A stretch of 64,000 nucleotides of DNA from Mollicutes bacterium. GTDB taxonomy: Bacteria; Bacillota_I; Bacilli_A; Mycoplasmatales; MT37. Positions 2 to 62,867 of this stretch are shown piece by piece; the stretch's first letter is position 1; the number at the start of each line of letters is the position of its first letter. Under the pieces are notes generated by a model. It did not search any database and was not told the DNA's origin. It saw only the letters and a list, made by a program, of their open reading frames with translations. Made by a program: the position numbers and the translations under genes. Location of the stretch: contig JARVCM010000011.1 in NCBI GenBank assembly GCA_029976705.1, positions 2,286 through 66,285 on the forward strand, written 5' to 3'.

Positions 2-1408
2 TTAGAATATTTAACTTTAGATCGAAAAGCGCAATCTTTATCTAGTGGTGAAGCACAAAGAATTAGATTGGCAACACAAATTGGTTCAAAATTAACAGGC
101 GTAATTTATGTTTTAGATGAACCTTCAATTGGATTGCATCAGTATGATAATCAAAAATTAATTCACACTTTAAAAACAATGCGTGATTTAGGTAATACTA
201 TTTTAGTTGTTGAACACGATGAAGAAACAATTAAATCTGCTGATTGAGTGGTAGATATCGGTATTTTAGGCGGAGTATATGGTGGTAACCTTGTTCATTC
301 TGGAACGGTTAAAGATTTATTGACAAACAAGCAATCTATCACAGGAAAATTTTTAAGTCAAAGAGAATCAATTGAAATTCCAAAAAAGAGAAGAAAAGGC
401 AATAAAAAATTTATTGAAATTATTGGTGCTGAAGAAAATAATTTAAAAAAAATTAATTTAAAAATTCCGTTAAATACTCTTGTTTGTGTTACTGGTTTAT
501 CCGGAAGTGGTAAATCCACTTTAGTAAACGAAGTTTTTTACAAAGGAATAAAAAAACAAATTGACAAAAATTATCACGAAAAACCAGGAAAAGTAAAAGA
601 TATTAAAAATATAATAGAAATTGAACGTTTAATTTTAATTTCACAAGAACCAATTGGCAAAACTTCACGAAGTAATCCCGCAACTTACACTTCTGTTTTT
701 AACAATATTCGCGAAACTTTTGCTAATACTATTGAAGCAAGAAAAAGAGGTTATAAAATAGGAAGGTTTTCTTTTAATGTTCGTGAGGGGCGTTGTGGAA
801 AATGTGAAGGAGATGGATTGATTTATCATTCAATGTTATTTTTGCCTGATGTTTATGTTAAATGTACTGAATGCAAGGGCAAAAGATACAATCGCGAAAC
901 TTTGCAAATTTATTTTCGTGGAAAAAATATCGCTGATGTCTTGGATATGGAAATTGATAAAGCTATTATTTTTTTTAACAAAAACGCTAAAATTAAAAAA
1001 AAATTAGAAACATTGATTGATGTCGGGTTAGGATATATCAAATTAGGTCAACCATCACCAAAATTATCAGGTGGTGAAGCACAAAGAATTAAATTAGCAA
1101 CTCATTTACACAAAAAAAGAGACAGTAAAACAATTTATATTTTAGATGAACCAACAACCGGTTTACATAGTTATGACATTAAAAAATTAATTAAATTGTT
1201 AAATCGTTTTGTAGATCAAGGCGAAACTGTTATTTTAATTGAACACAATTTAGACGTAATCAAATCTGCTGATTACATTATTGATTTAGGACCCAAAGGA
1301 GGATCTAAAGGTGGAGAAGTTATTGCTTTTGGCACTCCGGAAAAAGTTAGTCGTGTTGTTAAATCTTATACTGGACAATTTTTAAGTAAAATTTTGAAGA
1401 AAAAATAA
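2..1408 (+). CDS. uvrA: excinuclease ABC subunit A, C-terminal part (5' end outside window)
   Basis: Frame 2 reads [43 protein letters not shown] (Trp) at 245-247 joins this to track ORF 248-1408, which has CGKCEGDG, a second [12 protein letters not shown] and [10 protein letters not shown]. Confidence 0.95.
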
Positions 1409-2634
1409 TGAATTTTTGATACGCTTTTTTTGTTTCTTTTGGTGTTGTTTTAGGAACTTCATATTTCTTTTGAAAATTTTGAAAAATCAAAATGCCTGAT
1501 CTTACATGATTATTTATTCTTGTCATAGGCGTTATTCTTGTCGGAACTTTGGGGGCAAGGTTATGAACCTATTTGTTTTCTGATGTATTATGAAAGGAAA
1601 TTAATAAAAATAATGATTTTTGACAACGTTTAAAAATATTTTTTGGGTTTGGTCCTAAAGGCATGCGCGGTTTGTCAGTTCACGGCGCTTTAATCTTTGG
1701 TTTTTTTTATTGTTTAGGAATTTTTACTTGATACAGTAGAAAATATCAAATTTCTCTTTGAATTTGTTTAGACACGATTGTAAAATCAACTCTAATTATT
1801 CAAATTGTGGGAAGATGAGGTAATTTTTTCAATCAAGAATTACTTGGAGAAATTATTACCAGTAATTATCCTAATGAATATGGATGAATTCCGGAATGAT
1901 TTGGTCAAAAATTAAAATTTGTTGGTGATAATTCAAATGGAATAATCAGACAACCTCTCTTTCTCTATGAATCGTTCGCTAATTTCGTCGTTTTAATCGT
2001 TTTAATTTTTATCGTTCCTAAGTTAGGAATATTTTTTAGCGAAGAATTAAAAAAGCACCCAACATTTATAAAAGTAAAAAGAAAAAAAAAAGGAGTATGA
2101 GAATGAATAAAATGAAAAAAAAAACAATGACAAACACTAAATAATTTATGAAAAAATAATATTTGTTATCCAATAATAAAACGAAACGCCAACCCGCAAG
2201 TAAGAATAAGTACTGGAAAAATAGGTAAATTGCAAATATTACCATTTACTAAAAACAAATTATATAAACAACAAGAACAAAAAAATTACAGAGAAAATAA
2301 ATGATGAAAGTGAATTTGATTAAAATTATGTTTATTTTTTCAACGTGACAGCAAGGAAATTACAAATTTATATAATCCATCAAAATTAAAAATTACTAGA
2401 TTAGGAGTAGTCTTTTTTCTTTATTTGTTGACTTACGGATGCATTCGTTTGTTTTTGCAATCACTTCGTTATCTTAATTCAACAAATAATTATAATCATC
2501 CTATGGAAATCACAGATATTGTTTCAATTGTTTTTGTTATTGTTGGTTTTTTGGGAATAGTGTTTTGTCAATTTATTATTCCTTATAAATGAAGAAGTCA
2601 AAGTTGATATTATGAAACTTGGTATTATGTCTAA
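1408..2634 (+). CDS. lgt: prolipoprotein diacylglyceryl transferase with internal W/K-rich insertion
   Basis: The ATG overlaps the uvrA stop (TAATG). The code-4 ORF is 408 codons with many in-frame TGA. It has the GRWGNFFNQELLG signature and hydrophobic segments. Start and stop are in the same frame. Confidence 0.85.
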
Positions 2635-4539: not shown

Positions 4540-4910
4540 GGGGATGTAAAGGTTCGACAATTAACGAGTCTTTTTTGTTTGCAGTGGAGCGGTGGACCTA
4601 AATCACTAAGAGGTTTTTAAATAAAAGGAAACCAAAAAGAAGTACAATCTGTTAACGCTTTGATTTAATTTCAAAAGGTTAAGAGATGGGTCAAGTTAAA
4701 TTTTTGTTTGTTTATTTAACTTAGATTCTGATATCAAACAAAATCGAACAACAAATTAACTTGATTTGTTGTTTTAAAGTTTTAAGTTAGTGTAATCAAT
4801 GTTTTTGTTTAGTTTTAACATTAGTTACGAAATAAAAAAACTAAACTAAACTGTAGAAGACAGATCAAACTATTAATTGGAAATGGGTGCAAATCCCGTC
4901 ATCTCCACCA
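4540..4910 (+). ncRNA. ssrA: tmRNA (ssrA)
   Basis: The 5' GGGGATG pairs with the 3' CATCTCC-ACCA, giving a G3:U70 alanine identity pair. A T-arm-like GGGTGCAAATCCC is present. Adjacent to smpB. A possible tag frame is GGA AAC CAA AAA GAA GTA CAA TCT GTT AAC GCT TTG ATT TAA; the tag is low confidence. Confidence 0.9.
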
Positions 4911-13916: not shown

Positions 13917-13994
13917 GGATCCTTGGCTCAGTCTGGTTAGAGCGTTCCGTTGATAACGGAGAGGTCACAGGTTCAAGTCCTGTAGGATCCACCA
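13917..13994 (+). tRNA. tRNA-Ile (GAT)
   Basis: Anticodon arm TTCCG-TTGATAA-CGGAG. The 3' end was cross-checked with track ORF 13885-14088. Confidence 0.9.
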
Positions 13995-30971: not shown

Positions 30972-33857
30972 TTATATTGCTTTTTTCTTTAAAATCTCAT
31001 ATTTTAAATAAAAGAAATTATAAAGCAAATTAATTAAAAAAAGAAAAACCAATAAAGCAACAAAATAACCCAAATAATTCCAAACATCACTGACAACAAA
31101 AAAAACATTTAATTGATTGAAATAATTTATCAACACAGAAAAAAGATAATAACTCGAAACAAAAGATAAGAAAACTCCCAAAAATAATAAAAATCCAAAA
31201 GCAAAAGAAAAATTAAAAAGAAGATCTTGAACACGATAACCTGAAGTTAGTAAAAAAGAAATAGTTTTTTTGTTTTTATTATTTAAAAATTCAAAAAGTA
31301 AAAATAAAAAGCATAAAGAAACAAAAATATAAAAAACAAGAATAATTAATAAATAAATTTGAAAAATTTTGAAATGATAATAAGAAAAATATTTAATTTC
31401 ATTTAAATTTAATGATTCTAAATTTAATAAAGACATATCATCTAAATTAATTTTATTACTTTCTAAAAATTCTGTAATATTAAAGTTGTTTAAAGAAAAA
31501 CTTAAAATTAAATAGCGATGAAGATATTTATCATTATGTTTGGAAATAATTTGATTAAAAGGGATTTTTAATTTTTCAATTTCATTTTTAATAATGAATT
31601 TATTTTCTAAATATTGATAATCAACAAATAAATTATTTGAAATTAAAAATTCATCATTTACAAAAGCAGCAATTTTAAATTTATGTTTTTTATTATTTGA
31701 TTTATTTTTTAAAATTTGATTGTTCAAGGTCAAATCCATTTCAACAATATCTCCTAATTTATAACCTAACTTTTTAAAATGAAGCGGGGCAAGCGCATAA
31801 TAAATATCATCTCGCGGATCTTTGCCTAAAAAATAATTATTGTTGTCATCAATACGAAAATCTCAACCAGGTATTTTTTCTTCTAATTTATTATCAATTA
31901 CAAAAAATTCATGCCATTTATCTTTAAGAAAATATAATTTTCCTGAAGTGTTATTTTTAATAAAAAAATCCAAAACCAAAAGAGGTAAGTCTGTTTTTTT
32001 ATTATATGGAACAGTATTAAAGTAAATTTTTTTAATTTTAAAATAATCTAAATATTCTTTTATTTTTAAAGAATCAATATTTTTAGAATTAATAAATTTT
32101 TTTTGAAAAAGACAAGCCAAATCTAATTCATCTAAAAGTTTTTTAGGTTCAGGACCAATATGACAAGAATAATCAATGTTTTTGACCAAAACTTTTAAAT
32201 TTAATTTTTTTACTTCAATCATTTTTGTATCCTTATCTAAAAGGTCTTCTTCCGATAAAAAAGTATCACTATGAATAAAATTATCATGTGATTTCAAAAA
32301 AGAAGAACCGCTTATTCCATCAAATTTAGTAACACTTTTAACATCTTTTTGCAAAAAAGATGTTTGATTAGATAAAAAATTATCACTAGCAACTTTAGTA
32401 AAAACAAGTAAAAAAGACGTTATAAAAATAAAAATGAGAAAAATAAGAATAAATAATTTCTGTCAAAAATTACGAAAGAAAAAAAGCATAAAAATTTGAA
32501 ATTTACTGGAGTAATAAAAAAAAGAAGTTAATTTAACGCGAAGCGGATTATAAATACTTGATAATTTAAAAAAAATCAAATTATTTATTTTGTTAGAAGT
32601 TTCTTTTTTGTTCAAAAAATAAAAAATTATAGAATATGAAACCAACCCAAAACTAAGGGGAAATACAGAAAATAAAATTGTAAAAACCTTTCAATCAAAT
32701 GGTTTAAATTCTATAATAGTAAAAAATAATTTATTATTGGAATTGGAAAAATAATTATTCAGAAAAAAACCTAAAAAATAACCACAAATTATTGCCAAGG
32801 AAAAATAAAAAAAATTAATTAAAAAATAATTAAAAGATATTTGATTTGATGAATATCCTTGAATTTTTAAAAAATATAGAGCATTTTTGTCTTTTTTAAA
32901 ACTTGAAGCAGTTAATTGTCCGACTAAAGCAAAAAGAACAAAAACAAGAAAAAGAAGAATTGAAAAAATAAAAGCAAGTTCAAAAAAACTAAAATTCTTT
33001 TTTAATCCAGAAGAAGAATCAGAAGCAAAAGAAGTTATTTTGGGAATGTAATTAATGGATTTATAAATTTCTTTCTTAAAAAAATTTTTTGATTCATCAA
33101 TGTTTCTGTTGTTAAAACGAAAAAAAAGATAATTCTTATAATTTTTAATAATATTTATTGATTCCATATTATGAAATAATTTTTTGTTTACATAGACTAC
33201 ACCGATTATCTTGTAAAGATTAATTTCTGAATTTTGAAAGTTAAATTTACCTAAAGCGGCAAAAGTATCATAAAAACTTAATGATAAGTTTTGTACAGAA
33301 TTTCCCAAACCAACAACTTCAAATTTTTTATTAAAAAAATCAATATGTTGACCAACAGAAATATTGTTTAATTTTGCATATTTTTCATTCAAAACAACTT
33401 CAGATAAAGCGTCTTTAGGTTTTCTACCCGAAGATAAAACAACATTATTAATTGTTTGATTATCATCAAAAGCAGTTTGAACAAAAATCTCTTTTTTATT
33501 AATAAAATCTGTATATTTAGCAACCGAATTATAAAAATAATCAAAATTATATTTATTATCTTTTTTCTGTTTGAGCAATACATTATCAATAATTTTTTCT
33601 AATTTTAATTTTTTGTTTGAAAAAAAATCTCTTTTTTGTAAAATTTGAAATTCTTTATTTTTTGGTAATTCATAAACAAAATCAAATTGACCACTTTTTT
33701 GGATAATTTTATTTTGTTTATCTAATATATTTAATTCCACTTGAATAATAGGCGTAAAAAGCGAAATAGAAAGAGCAAAAAGAATAAAAAGTAAAATGTA
33801 TTTTTTGACATTTTTTAAAACAATAATATTAAAAATTGATCTAATTAAAACCGACAT
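30972..33857 (-). CDS. ABC transporter permease, duplicated FtsX/MacB-type module (961 aa)
   Basis: Four track ORFs (30972, 31863, 32463, 32691) share one frame. I translated the three junctions and each contains only TGA. The pattern TM, ~270-aa extracytoplasmic domain, 3 TM occurs twice. Confidence 0.75.
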
Positions 33858-40888: not shown

Positions 40889-42886
40889 TTATGTTAAATA
40901 TTCAATACTGTCAAAATCTTCTATTTCTTCAATAAAAATTGAATTAGAATTATCGCTAGTTGTAATAAATAATTCTTTTTTAGCTCTTGTAATTGCCACA
41001 AAAAATAAACGCCTTTCTTCTTCAACATCAATTGTTGAACGAAACAGATTAGGAAAATTATTACTGGAAACATTGAATATAAAAACATGAGAAAATTCCA
41101 ATCCTTTTGCACTATGAATGGTCATTAAATTAATTTTTTGACGAGAATTAGAAAGATCGTCAGCTGCTGAAAGATTAGTATGAACAAGAAATTCACTAAT
41201 TTTTTCTCTTATAGATAAATTTAAATGATTGCCTTCAAATTCAACTACCACCTCTTCAATTAAAGCATCAATATTTTTTAAACGTTGTTCATAGTCAACA
41301 TTATTTTGCAAAATAGGTTCATAAATATCTTGAAATAATTTACGAATAATAATTTTCAAAGATTTTAAATTATTCAAATTATTATTTATAGTTTTAAAAA
41401 CTGACCAAAAAGAATTAATTTGTTCTTGAAAGCGTGTTAAAAAAATTAAATTATTTTTTGATAAAAAATTAAATATTGTTTCTTTTTTAGCATTCGCTAA
41501 TTTGCGAACACGAACAATAGTACTAGGACCAATCCCATTAATTCAACTTAAAAGATTTTCTACATGTATGTCTTTAGGATTAAACAAAATAGAAAGTAAA
41601 ACTAACAATTCTTTAATTTCTTTTCTTTTAAAAAACTCTAAACCTTTAAAAATTTGATAAGGAAGATTTTTTTTAATTAAAAAATTTTCTAATATTCCAG
41701 AAACAGAATTAATTCTATATAAAATTGCAATTTGATTTAAAGGTACCAAATTAGCAGATAATTTTTCAATTTGTTCAGCAACAAAATTTGCTTCTTTAAA
41801 AATATTATAACCGCCAAATAAAAAAATTTTTTTACCTTGTTTTTCTTGAGCGATAAGTTTTTTGGCAACTCTCTTCTTATTATTTTCAATCAACAAATTT
41901 GCCAAATTAACAATATTTTTTGTAGAACGGTAATTAACAATTAATTTTATTGTTACCAAATTATAAAAATGTTTATCCAAATCAAGAATAAAATCAACAT
42001 TAGCACCTCTTCAACCATAAATTGTTTGATCTGGATCACCAACAACCGTTAATCTTAAATCTTTGCCGGAATTAGTCAATAATTTCACTATATCAAATTG
42101 CAAAGAACTAATATCTTGAAATTCATCAATTGCTAAATAATCATACTTATTACGTCATTTTTTCAAAATTTTTGGATTTTGTTGAAAAATTTGATGCGTT
42201 TTAATAAGCAAATCATTAAAATCTAAGAACCCTTCTTTTTGTTTATAATTGTTGTAATCTAATCAAAAATATCAAATGTTCGTTTTTTGTTCGTTTTTTA
42301 ATTCTTCAAATAAATAATTTTCATTTGTTAAATTAAGAAAATTAGAATAATTTTTAACTTTTTTTTGTTGTAAATAATTGATAATTACAATTATTTTTTT
42401 TGCTAAATCACTATCTATACGTTGTTTGTTATCTTGTTGTTTTGAAAGCAAAATTTTTATTAATTGTAATTGATCTGAACGATCTAAAACACTAATTTCT
42501 TGGTTTTCTAATTTTAAATATTTTTTTTCTCGTTTCAAGACAAAATAACAAAACGCATGATAAGTAAATACCGGTAAATTATCAGTTGATATTTGTTTTA
42601 ACGCTTTAATAATTTTATTTTTAATGTTTTCGCATGCTTTTCTAGTAAATGTTAAAGTCAAAATACGTTGTGGTAAAATTTGGTGTTTTTTAAACAAAAA
42701 TGTAATTCTTTCTGTTAAAACAGTTGTTTTCCCGGTTCCTGGACCGGCTATAATGCGAAGGTTATAATCAGGAGAATAAGTTGTCGCTTGCTTTTGTTCT
42801 TTATTCAAAGAGACAAAAGAACCTTCAAAATAATCTTTTTGTTGGTTTGAAATTAATGAATTATTAGATTTTAATTTTTTTTTCAT
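40889..42886 (-). CDS. pcrA: ATP-dependent DNA helicase, UvrD/PcrA family
   Basis: Three track ORFs lie in one frame. AGPGTGKTTVL, DEFQD, VGDPDQTIYGWRGA and SAKGLEF motifs. 665 aa. Confidence 0.92.
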
Positions 42887-42930
42887 TTTTTTTTTATTAC
42901 TTATAAAAAAGTTAATTTTAACATCTATAA

Positions 42931-42972
42931 CAAAAACAGAAAATCAACGATCAAGAAAAACTTGATGTTGAG
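42931..42972 (-). terminator. candidate rho-independent terminator after the RDD gene
   Basis: The minus-strand hairpin TCAACATCAAG-TTTTT-CTTGATCGTTGA (one bulge) is followed by TTTTCTGTTTTTG. Confidence 0.45.
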
Positions 42973-43051
42973 GATTAATTCTGACAAAAATAAAATAAAA
43001 TAACCATCATAAAAAAATAATTATGCTAGCACGTTGCAAAAAATAAATGCT

Positions 43052-43447
43052 ATTAAATTCTTTATCTAAAAGATTCATTATTAAAAAATAAAAAAAATAA
43101 AGAATTCATGTTAAAAATACAGGTACAAAAATAATGAAAAATTCACGCATAAAAAGAGATAGAAAAATTTTAGTTTTTTTACAAGAAGAAGAAAATAATA
43201 ACCTTATTCCAAACAATTTTTTTGCTAAAGTTTGATAAGAAAAAAAATAAGGAACAAAAACAAAATAAACAATAAAAACAAGCAAAAAAATTAAATTAAT
43301 AAATAAAATTTGAAAAGTAATATTGAAAAATGTAAATTGATTAAAAAAAAGAAAAGCAATAACCAAGATAAACATAAAAAACAAAATATCACAAATACGA
43401 GCAAAAATTCTTTTGGTTGTTGAGGCTAAAATTGGTTCTAATTTCAT
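43052..43447 (-). CDS. RDD family membrane protein
   Basis: KRIFARICDILFF is an RDD-like N-terminus. 3 TM segments. Track ORF 43106-43447 is extended through TGA. Confidence 0.55.
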
Positions 43448-44036: not shown

Positions 44037-44113
44037 TGGTGGGACCATTGGGACTTGAACCCAAGACCTCACGGTTATAAACCGTGTGCTCTGACCAACT
44101 AAGCTATAGCCCC
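44037..44113 (-). tRNA. tRNA-Ile (TAT anticodon)
   Basis: Cloverleaf GGGGCTATAGCTTAGTTGGTCAGAGCA. Anticodon arm CACGG-TTTATAA-CCGTG. T-arm TTGGGTTCAAGTCCCAA. Encoded CCA. Confidence 0.85.
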
Positions 44114-50402: not shown

Positions 50403-50696
50403 TTATTCTGGTTGTTTATTTAAATTTTCAGAATTAGAATTTACTTTTTTATTATTTTTTCTATTTAAAAGAATAAAATAGTAAATAACCCCGATTAAAC
50501 CAGTTAAAATAACACCAAAAATAATTTTCAAGGTAGAGTCTCTATCAACGCCGGATCTTATTAGATATATACCTAAAATTAAAAATACAACCCAAACAAC
50601 AAAAATAAAAATTAAATAAAAAATAAAGAGTAAAAGAGAAAGGTCTATTGAATCAGAAGAATTGTCTTCAACTAAAAAATAAAAATAGTTAAACAT
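50403..50696 (-). CDS. small membrane protein, paralog 1
   Basis: Track ORF 50403-50714, with ATG at 50696. Two TM segments and a C-terminal GVDRDSTLKIIFGVILTGLIGVIYYFILLNRKNNKK. Confidence 0.55.
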   Translation of the reverse strand: MFNYFYFLVEDNSSDSIDLSLLLFIFYLIFIFVVWVVFLILGIYLIRSGVDRDSTLKIIFGVILTGLIGVIYYFILLNRKNNKKVNSNSENLNKQPE

Positions 50697-50739
50697 TTCA
50701 ACAGATTTAAACAATTTGACAAATAACTATTTTTTTAAT

Positions 50740-50970
50740 TTAATTATTTACTTTTTCTGACTTTTGGTGACTAGAGTTTGCTTTTTTATTATTTTTTCTA
50801 TTTGAAAGAATAAAGTAGTAAATAAGACCAATTAAACCAGTAATGATTACTCCAATAATAATTCGTGGTGTTGAATCTCTTGAAACTCCAGTATTAACCA
50901 AATAAAAACCAATAAACATTCAAAAAACCGTTCCTACAAACACACTAATTCCGATAACAACACTTAACAT
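50740..50970 (-). CDS. small membrane protein, paralog 2
   Basis: 76-aa ORF with one TGA. GVSRDSTPRIIIGVIITGLIGLIYYFILSNRKNNKK closely matches paralog 1. Confidence 0.55.
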
Positions 50971-57606: not shown

Positions 57607-57964
57607 CCTCTTTCACAAGTGAAACAATTTTATCAAAACCTTTTTGTTTTAATTCATTAGCAACCGGACCAAAAATTCTAGTTCCGCGCGGATTTTTATT
57701 TTTAGCAATGATAACAGCGGCATTATCACCAAAAGAAATTACTTGTCCATTTTTTCTTCGAATTGAATTACGTGTTCGTACTACTACAGCGCGAACAATC
57801 TCTCCTTTTTTTACTGTCCCTGATGGGGAAGCGATCTTAATTGTTCCGACAATAATATCACCGACATTTGCTGTTTTTTTACGCGATGCTATATTGCAAA
57901 TCATTAAAATTTCTTTAGCACCGGTATTATCAGTTATTCTGAGTCTTGTTTCTTTCTGAACCAT
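57599..57964 (-). CDS. rplN: 50S ribosomal protein L14
   Basis: Reads [18 protein letters not shown]... Confidence 0.95.
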
Positions 57965-58326
57965 TATTTATTTTCTGTCTTCGTTTCAAATAGATTAATT
58001 TTACTTTTCTTTTGAGCAGAAGTAATAATTTTTGCAACATAAAAACTTTTTTTTAACGAAATTTTTCGAGAATTGACAATTAATACTTGATCACCAATTT
58101 GACATTTATTTTTGGCATCATGAACCAAATATTTCTTACTACGAGAAACAGTTTTTTGATAAATAGGATGACGAAATTTATTTACAACCAAAACTGTGAC
58201 AGTTTTTTCCAAACTATTATTAACCACTTGCCCCGTTAAACTAAAACGTTTGGGAGTAGTAAAAGAAGAATCGTTATTCTTAGAAGTTAATTTAGAATTC
58301 ATCATAATATCAATAGATTTTAACAT
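57964..58326 (-). CDS. rpsQ: 30S ribosomal protein S17 (start may be an internal ATG at 58305 or 58302)
   Basis: Reads ..[47 protein letters not shown]... Confidence 0.9.
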
Positions 58327-58362
58327 AAAACAAGTTTTTTATAAAATAAAAAACATTAAATC

Positions 58363-59850
<1,488 letters not shown>

Positions 59851-59855
59851 AAAGT

Positions 59856-62558
59856 TTATTTTTTATTATCTTTTTGAAAAGAAAAATCAATGTCTTTAGG
59901 ATGTATCGGATTTGTGTTTTTATAAATATTAATAATTTCACCATTCTCAATGTATAAGACAGTTTTGGCCAATTGTTTAAAAATAGGATTGTGTGTAACT
60001 AAAACAATACTAGTGCCATATTTTTCATTAATATCAAAAAGCATTTCCATTACTATTTTTGACATTTTATGATCTAATGCTCCTGTAGGTTCGTCACAAA
60101 ACAATAAATCAGGGTTTTTTGCTAAAGCGCGAGCAATAGAGAATCGTTGCTGCTGTCCACCAGAAAGTTGAAAGGGATATTTATCTAACAATTTATCAAT
60201 TTGCAAAAATTTATAAATTTCATTCATATCCATTGATTGTTTAAACTTTGGCAGTAAAGCGCCACCAATTTCCACATTTTCTAAAGCGGTTAAGTTTTGT
60301 AACAAGTTATATTGTTGAAAAATAAATCCTACATATTCACGACGAAATTCAGTCAAACCACCTTCGTTAAGAAGAGACAAATTAAGCCCATTAATCAAAA
60401 GATCACCACTATCAACATTGTCAATGCCCGACATAATATTCAGCATTGTACTTTTTCCAGCACCTGAAGGTCCTAAAATAACCAAAAAATCACCACGCTC
60501 AATCTTTAAACTCATGTTATTGATTGTTTTCTCAACTCTTTTTTCTGTGATATGAAATTTAAAAACATTATACATCTCCAAAATATATCGCACAGGACTA
60601 ATATCTTCACTATTTATAGTAACAATATCTTGGTTGTGAGTAATACGTGAGTTATAAGTTTTTCTAAGTTTATTATAAATTTTATTATTATTTTTATAAT
60701 CCTTATAATTATTAACCCTTTTAAGTAGCCCAGAGTTAGAGATTTCAATGCGATTATTTAAACGCTCATTTAAAGTTCTTTTTTTTCTTTTGAAAAAAAA
60801 ATAATCTCAAAAAGAGCGACCGCGAGAACTAGTTTCTGTATTTTCTTTATCTGAACTTTCTTGCAAGGTAAGTAAAAGAGATTCTAAAAAATCTTTTTGC
60901 AATTTTTTAATTGCAAAAATTTGATTGATAGTTTTAAATGGCAATATTTTTTTGACATTTTCATTTAAAGAGCCGTCTTTTTTAATATCAGTATGCCAAT
61001 TTAGATTTGTAAAAACTCAAAATCTTTGATCAGAGCAATCATATCCGGCTTTTTTAATATCAAAAACAACAGATTTAATTTCATCTCAATGTTTCACCAC
61101 CAAATCAATTAAAAAAGTTTTTAAAAAATTTTTTTTAACTTTTTTGATTGCCAAAATTTTTTCAATGTTTCAATTAGGAATATTTTTTTTTGTTGAATTT
61201 GACAAATTACCATTTTCAAATAAATCTTTTTTATAATTAAATTGCATTTCCTTTCAAAAATCTTGATTAAATAATTGTTCCTTATCAAAAACAAAAATCT
61301 TATTTAAAATAAAATAAATTTCTTCTCAATGAGAAATCACTTCTTTTCTAATATAATCATCTAAAATATTTTTCTTTAAATTTAAAAAACAAATAATTTT
61401 CTCATTACTAAAATTAATTATTTTTTCAGGAAATTTAATTGAACCATTTGATAATAAATCTTTTTTATAATCAATTTGTGTTTCTTTTCAAATATCAGTA
61501 TTAAAAAATACACTTTGATAAGCAATCATTATTTCCAATTGTTTTTTGTTTTTATTTCAATTATTTAAAACTGTTTCTTGAAAAAAATTAAGCAAAAAAT
61601 TTTCATCAATTTTTTTCTTCATTGTTCATTGTTCAGATAATTCTCAATTAATTTTTTTTGAAGCGGTTTTTTTTAGTTTTCCTTGCTCAAAATCATTTTC
61701 TCAATCTAATTTAGTTTGAAAAAACACATTATTACCAGCAAAAGAGAAGTTCAAAATTTCTAAACGTTTAAGTAGAGGAGTCAGTTTATTTCAATGATTA
61801 AAAATTTCTTGTTCAACAAATTCTTTCAAACTTTTGGAATTAATTTTTTTAATAACTGATAAATTTATTGTTTTTATTAACAAAACAGGTAATAAATCAG
61901 ATTTGAAAGTACACTTATCGTTTTCAAAATAGATATCTTTTAGTTTAGCCTCTTTTCAAAGTGAAAAATTTTGTAAATCAAAGCCATTGCGAAAAATATC
62001 GTTAATTAAAACTCTATTTGGATTTCAATAAGTATTGTTAAAATTATTAACAAGATAATTCTTTAAAATTTTTTCAGTGATTTGAAATAATAAAATAATT
62101 AAATCAATTTTTTTATCAGAAAATAATTCTTTAATTTTTTGTTCGGTTAAGAAAAAATTAGGATTTAAATCTTTTTGAAAACTTAATTTAGTCAGTTTGT
62201 AAAAAGTTTTTTCCAAAGAAGGTGTATTTAATTTTTTTATCGTTAACAAAATGTCGGAAAATTTATTTCAATGTATTTCTAATTTTTGTTTGATTCAACC
62301 TTGCAAAAAAGAAACTTCAAGAGATTTTAAAATTTTTTCTTGAAATTCTAAATTTTTTTCAATCTTTAAATACATATCTACACTCAATTCACCATTAAAT
62401 TCAATGTCTTTTTCTCAGTTTAAATCAGTTTTCTTTCAAAATTTTTCTAAACTAATATCTTGATTAATTTTTTTGATGATCTTTAAGCATTTAGCAATAG
62501 ATTTTCAAACTTCTGAAAAAATTAATTTTTTTGATGAAATATTTTTATTATTTGTCAT
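59856..62558 (-). CDS. 900-aa protein: N-terminal tandem-repeat domain fused to a MacB/LolD-type ABC ATPase domain
   Basis: I scanned every in-frame triplet from 60594 to 62558 and found no TAA or TAG, but about 30 TGA. The ATG at 62558 is preceded by an in-frame TAA at 62571-62573. Track ORFs 59856-60593 (GPSGAGKST, LSGGQQQR, LLFCDEPTGALD) and 62025-62249 lie in the same frame. Confidence 0.75.
60880..62540 (-). repeat. about seven degenerate tandem repeats of 231-243 nt (77-81 codons) within the 59856-62558 ORF
   Basis: The unit-marking Trp (TGA) codons are at 62505, 62268, 62025, 61791, 61557, 61326 and 61086. Recurrent pattern: [ND]FL..F......HW[NDE]...FW......KD...NG......K.I....I..IKK..K. 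Confidence 0.7.
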
Positions 62559-62639
62559 TTTAATTAAAAATTATTTTATTTGAATTGCTTTTTGAAATTA
62601 ACATATGTCTTTGCATTAAAAAAACAAGTTAACTTTTAG

Positions 62640-62867
62640 TTATATATTAATTTTTTTAGATTTTTGTTTTTTATTATCCTTTCGCTCTTGAATGATTGTT
62701 AAAATTCACGCTATTTGTTGTTTTAATTTTTTAACATCAGAAAAACTATTTGATTTTCCGGAAGCAATTTGAAAATTCAAAACAAACAACTGACCACGCA
62801 AGTCTTTTATTTTGATGATTAAATCTGGATCGCTTAATTTACGAAAATCATTAATATTTGTTTTCAT
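62640..62867 (-). CDS. rpmC: 50S ribosomal protein L29
   Basis: 75 aa, ..LRGQLFVLNFQIASGKSNS.., directly downstream of rplP. Confidence 0.9.

Follow-up and report, generated by a model that had tools for sequence, protein, structure and literature searches.

A seven-repeat N-terminal module fused in frame to a MacB/LolD-class ABC ATPase of coral-associated Mollicutes

We describe an ATP-binding cassette (ABC) ATPase with a long N-terminal addition, encoded in a 64,000-nucleotide stretch of DNA from a Mollicutes bacterium (GenBank assembly GCA_029976705.1, contig JARVCM010000011.1, positions 2,286 to 66,285; this whole stretch is the window below). Read with genetic code 4 (translation table 4), the minus strand from 62558 to 59856 encodes one protein of 900 amino acids, whose sole stop is the terminal one. 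Seven tandem repeats make up most of the protein, and a basic linker joins them to a C-terminal nucleotide-binding domain (NBD) of the MacB/LolD class. The best explanation, to which we assign a probability of roughly 0.55, is that this is the ATPase of a MacB/FtsX (type VII) transporter bearing a lineage-specific cytoplasmic repeat arm. The parts of the gene are these, where long forms are orthologs with the repeat module and short forms are orthologs that lack it:

59856-62558, minus strand: complete 900-aa coding sequence in code 4, comprising repeat module, linker and ABC NBD; stop codon TAA at 59856-59858
60888-62534, minus strand: seven tandem Trp-rich helical repeats of ~79 aa, residues 9-557, from self-alignment, a repeat hidden Markov model (HMM) and AlphaFold2 (AF2)
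60582-60812, minus strand: linker, residues 583-659, opened by the aromatic/basic segment FWDYFFFKRKKR at 60777-60812 and kept in long and short forms
59859-60581, minus strand: MacB/LolD-class ABC NBD, residues 660-900, from Pfam and NCBIfam

Is the 2 kb upstream of the ATPase really part of the gene? Across the 655 codons of 60594-62558, the frame of the gene contains no TAA or TAG. Counts in the other five frames run from 14 to 68, and the mean in shuffles that preserve composition is 56 (Poisson P(0) ~5e-25). An in-frame TAA lies two codons upstream of the ATG at 62558. A preliminary description of this DNA had proposed just such an uninterrupted frame, preceded by an in-frame TAA, and in both respects it was right; its estimate of about 30 TGA codons was too high, our recount giving 19. 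With table 11 the frame shows 20 stops, 19 of which are internal TGA codons, and Trp in the gene is encoded by 19 TGA and one TGG. A code-11 listing of open reading frames (ORFs) in the region returns only a 245-aa ORF (59856-60593) and a 74-aa fragment (62025-62249), which reproduces the earlier observation that a 74-aa fragment is all that is displayed upstream of the ATPase ORF. The ORF looked hidden, as it had been called, because a code-4 genome was read with code 11. The identical 900-aa protein (P0001) is already public: an NCBI record gives it on a contig of 72 kb, and near-identical copies with 1-3 aa differences are found on ENA and Logan metagenome contigs. Among conspecific contigs the gene varies by K314M, the one nonsynonymous change, and by 0-1 synonymous change.

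The reading of TGA as Trp is valid throughout the window. Its long ORFs contain 215 TGA vs 13 TGG, and TGA codons occur inside the ribosomal protein genes, secY, lysS (encoding lysyl-tRNA synthetase, LysRS) and the atp genes. The window has 25.0% GC, 17 tRNAs and one tmRNA, and its source is probably Ca. Thalassoplasma callogorgiae, an Oceanoplasmataceae-like coral mollicute. The genome of that species is 445 kb in 21 contigs, with 24.9% GC and 385 genes (Vohsen et al. 2024, PMC11535214). The choice of code matters beyond this gene. In related contigs (L008/L009, which are CP125803, and L010 and L012) the public gene calls are broken up in the way that code 11 would produce, and rpoC, secY and ribosomal protein genes are split. 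Code-11 calling cuts the long-form ABC protein down to 289-316 aa, so that searches of protein databases under-count TGA-rich families such as this one.

The N-terminal module consists of internal repeats. When the protein is aligned with itself by a diagonal scan, the off-diagonal scores reach 118, 109 and 107, vs a maximum of 64 in shuffles, at offsets that are multiples of ~79 aa. A repeat HMM finds seven copies in the 900-aa protein (E 1e-20 to 1e-31). The copies align in register as follows, all on the minus strand:

62307-62534, minus strand: repeat R1
62067-62306, minus strand: repeat R2
61830-62066, minus strand: repeat R3
61596-61829, minus strand: repeat R4
61365-61595, minus strand: repeat R5
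61125-61364, minus strand: repeat R6
60888-61124, minus strand: repeat R7
60987-61028, minus strand: most conserved patch of the module, in repeat 7, reading Q-R-F-W-V-F-T-N-L-N-W-H-T-D and diagnostic of long forms

The motif common to the repeats is L..f......HW...(~20)..fWK.T.L..xKD...NG.L, and its Trp and Asp/Gly positions are invariant in each repeat. AF2 modelling of the N-terminal 660 residues from a three-sequence alignment gave a predicted local distance difference test (pLDDT) of 70-93 over residues 11-570. A two-repeat unit, R6-R7, was modelled from an alignment of nine non-overlapping repeat pairs and reached a pLDDT of 94.2 and a predicted template-modelling score of 0.86. In the models the unit is predicted to have a long helix of ~30 residues, three short helices, a small beta-hairpin and one further helix; the hairpin would coincide with the KD..NG.L part of the motif, and the last helix would run into the long helix of the next repeat. 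The module is basic in all orthologs (pI 9.3-9.7) and has no hydrophobic segment of transmembrane (TM) grade (KD19 maximum 1.3-1.6). Repeat 7, which lies next to the linker, is the most conserved, with Q.FW..TNL.W.TD...DG.L invariant across the long-form orthologs. Such a peak of conservation suggests a functional contact near the NBD or the membrane-proximal region.

Is the module a member of a described family? At E<=1, neither Pfam nor NCBIfam has a match to the N-terminal part, and Pfam searches with the nine repeat pairs at E<=10 gave only scattered single matches. A profile search of PDB sequences returned E values of at least 0.13. Foldseek with the whole-module model gave a best E of 0.32 (TM score <0.13); for the two-repeat unit at pLDDT 94, the best E was 2.2 against PDB and 1.8 against BFVD (TM score <0.3). 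Residues 1-580 are therefore outside every described repeat or domain family among those searched (Pfam, NCBIfam, PDB sequences, and PDB and BFVD folds), and we regard the modelled repeat fold, provisionally and as judged against PDB and BFVD, as novel. Like the scaffolds built from HEAT, ARM, TPR or spectrin-like repeats, the array is modelled as tandem helical units that probably form an elongated scaffold. Unlike those, its unit is ~79 aa long, includes a beta-hairpin, and matches no Pfam repeat and no Foldseek structure. In a literature search on N-terminally extended MacB-type NBDs in mycoplasmas, nothing relevant was found. The preliminary description had noted a repeat domain upstream of the ATPase, had taken it to be non-membrane, and had recognised no family for it; the self-alignment, the hydropathy profile and the negative Pfam, PDB-profile and Foldseek searches bear out these points in turn.

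How widely is the module distributed? When 1.84 billion representative proteins were scanned exhaustively by HMMER, with residues 1-661 as the query, only two relatives came up, one of 953 aa (P0006; E 7e-69, 30% identity) and one of 921 aa (P0007; E 2.5e-50, 26% identity). Both align end to end with the 900-aa protein and share its architecture. A search with the linker and NBD gave close matches of 289-351 aa, among which the proteins of lineages L010 (922 aa) and L012 (936 aa) prove to be long forms under code 4, shortened by code-11 calls. The long form is thus present in five divergent lineages, whose N-terminal regions share 25-30% identity. In the four lineages other than that of the window, the upstream region is likewise free of TAA and TAG, with 16-22 TGA codons in each lineage. 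Every long form has exactly seven copies by the repeat HMM. A DNA motif for repeat 7, with W as TGA or TGG, matches every long form and no short form, and has 0 matches in the JGI metagenome collection. The two HMMER relatives and the JGI result together indicate that, within the collections searched, the module is rare and confined to this clade.

Two sister lineages have the gene in its short form. That of Ca. Oceanoplasma callogorgiae (CP125803) encodes 333 aa and lies 143 bp from the called end of rpmC; that of a coral-metagenome lineage (L011) encodes 351 aa and lies 38 bp from rpmC. These short forms are like the long forms in occupying the slot rpmC-ABC-lysS-rpsQ, and in the W..K.FFGF motif, the linker and the NBD, at 51-56% identity; they differ in that the whole seven-repeat module is missing, and the repeat HMM finds no copy in them. 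The fusion's phylogenetic distribution is therefore five long-form and two short-form lineages in one conserved operon slot.

When was the arm acquired? Orthologous repeats resemble each other more closely than paralogous ones do (35.7% vs 25.1% identity for L010, and 31.6% vs 25.4% for L006), which indicates that an array of seven repeats existed before these lineages diverged and has stayed stable from then on. Two solid long-form clades (98-100%) are resolved by a neighbour-joining tree of the LysRS and NBD sequences, with Spiroplasma as the root, and by another tree built on 15 proteins of the operon; one clade unites the window lineage with L010, the other L006 with L007 plus L012. The short-form Oceanoplasma is the first to branch, with only 61% support, and the short-form L011 falls in an unresolved trichotomy with both long-form clades (47-51%). 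With this topology, the arm could have been gained once, after Oceanoplasma had split off, or gained and then lost again on one occasion.

The linker has a different history. After FWDYFFFKRKKR, whose counterpart in the relatives is W..K.FFGF, come basic helices and then a family-wide 'Y-S/N-x-x-I' segment directly before the NBD; AF2 models the region as two long helices at low confidence. Among named proteins the closest are the 'ABC transporter ATP-binding proteins' of Spiroplasma, Mesoplasma and Entomoplasma, which match 80-87% of residues 579-900 at 46-52% identity. These orthologs, of 300-350 aa, cover the linker, including the basic segment and a 'YSKxI' motif. Since the linker is common to them, it is ancestral and not part of the novelty, a point on which the earlier description needs correcting; by the same token the NBD of the relatives is not a bare canonical NBD either. 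The group of N-extended K02003 NBDs of Mollicutes matches 80-97% of residues 579-900 at 46-62% identity. Its members are like the present protein in the basic segment and 'YSKxI' before the NBD and in the lysS neighbourhood. Their extensions vary in length, some Mesoplasma and Mycoplasma members having 400-553 aa, and are unlike the arm: they are tails that are short and basic, or low-complexity or coiled-coil stretches rich in Lys, Glu and Ala, and they lack the structured Trp-rich repeats. Neither these proteins nor their neighbours give a match to the repeat HMM. Two Spiroplasma hypothetical proteins (233 and 331 aa) beside the orthologous NBD were considered as a source of the module and set aside, as the repeat HMM was negative. 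In the short forms the W..K.FFGF motif is at the extreme N-terminus, and we infer a resemblance to an interfacial amphipathic element.

What kind of ATPase is the C-terminal domain? Its main motifs, and a Met codon discussed below, are placed as follows:

60447-60473, minus strand: Walker A
60153-60167, minus strand: signature LSGGQ
60090-60107, minus strand: Walker B and catalytic Glu
60573-60575, minus strand: ATG of M662, the proposed internal ATPase start, which is not conserved

The domain matches Pfam ABC_tran (PF00005) with E 1.8e-31 and 110 bits, vs a cut-off of 25. Walker A, Q-loop, LSGGQ, Walker B-Glu and H-loop are all intact, and GPSGAGKST, FQQYNLL, LSGGQQQR, LLFCDEPTGALD and VTHN are invariant in the orthologs. 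With every catalytic motif present, the NBD should dimerise and hydrolyse ATP normally. The top NCBIfam matches are DarD, LolD, L_ocin_972_ABC, DevA, MacB and FtsE (E 1e-45 to 1e-53; DarD 3e-53, LolD 6e-53, MacB 2e-48 and FtsE 4e-45). The scores are below every equivalog cut-off (LolD TIGR02211, 179.7 against 307.75; MacB NF007826, 165.5 against 966; FtsE TIGR02673, 154 against 264.85; DarD NF038007, 180.4 against 375), so that the NBD is not LolD, MacB, FtsE or DarD proper. By sequence it is a member of the MacB/LolD/FtsE (type VII) class rather than of the importer, ABC-F or SMC classes, and its earlier description as a MacB/LolD-type ATPase stands.

Named type-VII NBDs are either bare (~220-230 aa) or fused C-terminally to the permease. 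The present protein is like the MacB, LolD, FtsE and DarD-DevA systems in its NBD sequence class, in its full motif set and in having a double-FtsX permease in the genome. It is unlike them in that the NBD gene is unlinked to the permease and carries a linker of ~75 aa and a repeat arm of 550 aa. It also differs from ABC-F proteins, which have tandem NBDs with a linker where here there is a single NBD, and from SMC and Rad50, in which a coiled coil is inserted between Walker A and the signature, the arm here being N-terminal. Weak SMC_N matches are seen on the relatives and are generic.

The neighbours of the gene in the window are these:

62640-62867, minus strand: rpmC (L29), upstream neighbour, separated by an 81-bp gap
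58363-59850, minus strand: lysS, class-II lysyl-tRNA synthetase, 5 nt downstream, from Pfam tRNA-synt_2 and OB matches
57964-58326, minus strand: rpsQ (S17), where the ribosomal operon resumes

In all seven lineages the order is S10 ... L16, L29, [ABC], lysS, S17, L14, with lysS 5 nt downstream of the ABC gene in each. The S10/spc operon is thus broken between rpmC and rpsQ by the ABC NBD and lysS (57964-62867 in the window; 7/7 lineages). In Spiroplasma, the NBD and lysS lie near ftsH/hslO/dus instead of in the ribosomal operon. The window synthetase is 50% identical to the Spiroplasma LysRS encoded near the orthologous NBD, and the presence of lysS near the NBD there too makes their adjacency inherited synteny. 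In Spiroplasma syrphidicola the genes on either side of the ortholog encode giant FtsX permeases of 1380 and 1114 aa, and lysS follows two genes downstream. Flanked in this way, the family would appear to be a transporter ATPase that is normally encoded beside an FtsX permease. On this comparison of gene orders, the NBD-lysS pair of the reduced marine lineages has moved into the S10/spc operon, away from the permease gene.

Where, then, is the permease? The window contains one candidate partner:

30972-33857, minus strand: 961-aa FtsX-family permease, Pfam FtsX matched in two stretches

Hydropathy gives it eight TM-like segments arranged as 2 x (TM, large loop, 3 TM). Within the 64 kb there is one FtsX protein and one MacB-class NBD, 26 kb apart. 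The sister genus has a similar arrangement: O. callogorgiae has one K02003 gene of 996 nt beside the LysRS gene (tpm 333 and 187) and one K02004 permease gene of 5943 nt, ~270 kb from it (Vohsen et al., PMC11535214). We infer that the NBD pairs with the permease at 30972-33857. The same partner had been suggested before, and the suggestion is reasonable: this is the sole FtsX protein in the window, the Spiroplasma synteny points the same way, and the sister genus has one NBD and one permease, unlinked, though all of this evidence is indirect. A fused double-FtsX permease needs two copies of an NBD, which fits a homodimer of the 900-aa protein.

Two observations concern the permease and what it might handle. 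NBD and permease have opposite sizes in the two genomes, 900 and 961 aa in the window as compared with 333 and 1980 aa (440155-446097) in O. callogorgiae; with n=2 this may be coincidence. The window also encodes Lgt (1408-2634, plus strand), a 408-aa protein whose Pfam LGT match falls in two stretches, implying a large insertion. Since the cell has Lgt, it makes lipoproteins, and these are a possible class of substrate for an FtsX system like LolCDE.

What might the complete machine look like? We propose that the single 900-aa protein is cytoplasmic and is the ATPase subunit of the cell's only type-VII ABC transporter. A homodimer would dock on the separately encoded 8-TM double-FtsX permease. 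The linker goes back to the ancestor shared with Spiroplasma and Mesoplasma, and the seven-repeat arm would have been added to it in one sub-clade of the mollicutes of corals and marine invertebrates. With two copies per transporter, the arm, soluble and basic, would be a cytoplasmic scaffold or regulatory arm, and the two arms might bind a cytoplasmic partner or modulate NBD closure. A binding or regulatory role of the arm is speculative.

Several points weigh against this proposal. The searches gave no homolog, ligand motif or structural analogue that would point to a function of the arm. The link between NBD and permease is indirect: the count of one NBD and one permease covers 64 kb of a ~445-kb genome, and the window permease matches Spiroplasma FtsX weakly, with E 1e-4 over 74 aa. 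The conspecific variation given above is too low for dN/dS. Finally, a second product may arise from a start within the gene.

That last point leads to the alternative that survives best, which we nevertheless consider unlikely. The gene might have two products, the full-length protein and a free ATPase of ~240-320 aa started at ATG 60575 or near the linker; the latter would serve the transporter, and the long form would have a separate role. Short forms of 333-351 aa do function alone in the sister lineages, and the in-frame ATG of M662 has GGAG just upstream. The GGAG abuts ATG 60575, however, with no spacer. Where the window protein has M662, P0006 and P0007 have Leu or Ile, and L010 and L012 have Ala or Leu; among the long-form orthologs there is no conserved internal Met. 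A start at M662 would also drop the linker, which is kept even by the short forms and the Spiroplasma orthologs. A promoter and terminator scan showed no enrichment over shuffles, inside the gene or otherwise, and is uninformative on transcription units. The architecture is kept in five lineages and M662 is not, which upholds the earlier claim that the ATPase is fused in frame to the upstream domain.

A second alternative takes the protein out of transport altogether. It would be a soluble mechanochemical ATPase of the Rad50/SMC or ABC-F-like kind, in which an ATP-driven dimer brings the arms together on a cytoplasmic target, perhaps one linked to translation in view of the ribosomal operon where the gene lies. 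The gene is unlinked to any permease and lies between rpmC and lysS/rpsQ in all lineages, and the arm, as modelled, is long, helical and basic. Against this, the NBD falls in the MacB/LolD class of transporters, FtsX permeases flank its ortholog in Spiroplasma, and an orphan FtsX permease in need of an NBD is present. Nor does the location speak for such a role, as the armless short form sits in the same operon slot, making location independent of the arm, and the adjacency to lysS is inherited. We think this alternative quite improbable. The idea that the upstream 2 kb is non-functional, being accreted or decaying sequence or an annotation artefact, could draw on the lack of homologs outside a small clade and on its low-complexity, AT-rich composition, but is effectively refuted by the 0 TAA/TAG in 655 codons where ~56 are expected, by a frame that is open in four further lineages too, by HMMER E values of 7e-69 and 2.5e-50 at 26-30% identity with invariant Trp and Asp/Gly in the repeats, by a highly confident AF2 model, and by a host genome that is severely reduced (~445 kb).

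The window holds some further features of note. An 852-aa protein (40889-43447, minus strand) joins an RDD-family membrane domain at its N-terminus (residues 7-168) to a full UvrD/PcrA-type helicase, an unusual membrane tether for a DNA helicase. A tRNA-Ile with anticodon TAT (UAU) is encoded at 44037-44113 (minus strand), besides tRNA-Ile(GAT) at 13917-13994; its presence suggests that AUA is decoded without a lysidine-modified tRNA. The tmRNA (4540-4910, plus strand) has the predicted tag peptide GNQKEVQSVNALI, with an atypical C-terminal ending. Two small ORFs of 76 and 97 aa with no Pfam match lie in the ribosomal operon between map and infA (~50403-50970, minus strand) and are kept in conspecific contigs (L002, 18916-19483).

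What does a repeat arm on a transporter ATPase mean for these organisms? Type-VII (MacB/FtsX-like) systems are understood to pass the movements of their ATPase outward across the membrane, and accessory domains on the ATPase subunit are, to our knowledge, essentially undescribed. Here a genome of ~385 genes devotes 1.65 kb to a structured, conserved arm on such a subunit. The armless sister lineages, in which the gene has kept its place, supply a natural comparison with and without the arm, and the module, a confidently modelled orphan repeat family, is a further entry in the dark protein space of uncultured Mollicutes. A bolder thought, for which we see only a slim chance, is that the arm is a new fold that makes a type-VII (mechanotransmission) transporter couple in two directions, and that two basic rods of ~550 residues per transporter physically link the ATPase cycle to a cytoplasmic structure or partner such as the nucleoid, ribosomes or a cytoskeleton-like element, or gate hydrolysis by a cytoplasmic signal. 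If so, the arm would be a costly innovation, taking ~0.4% of a 445-kb genome, and would be central to the cell biology of the symbiont.

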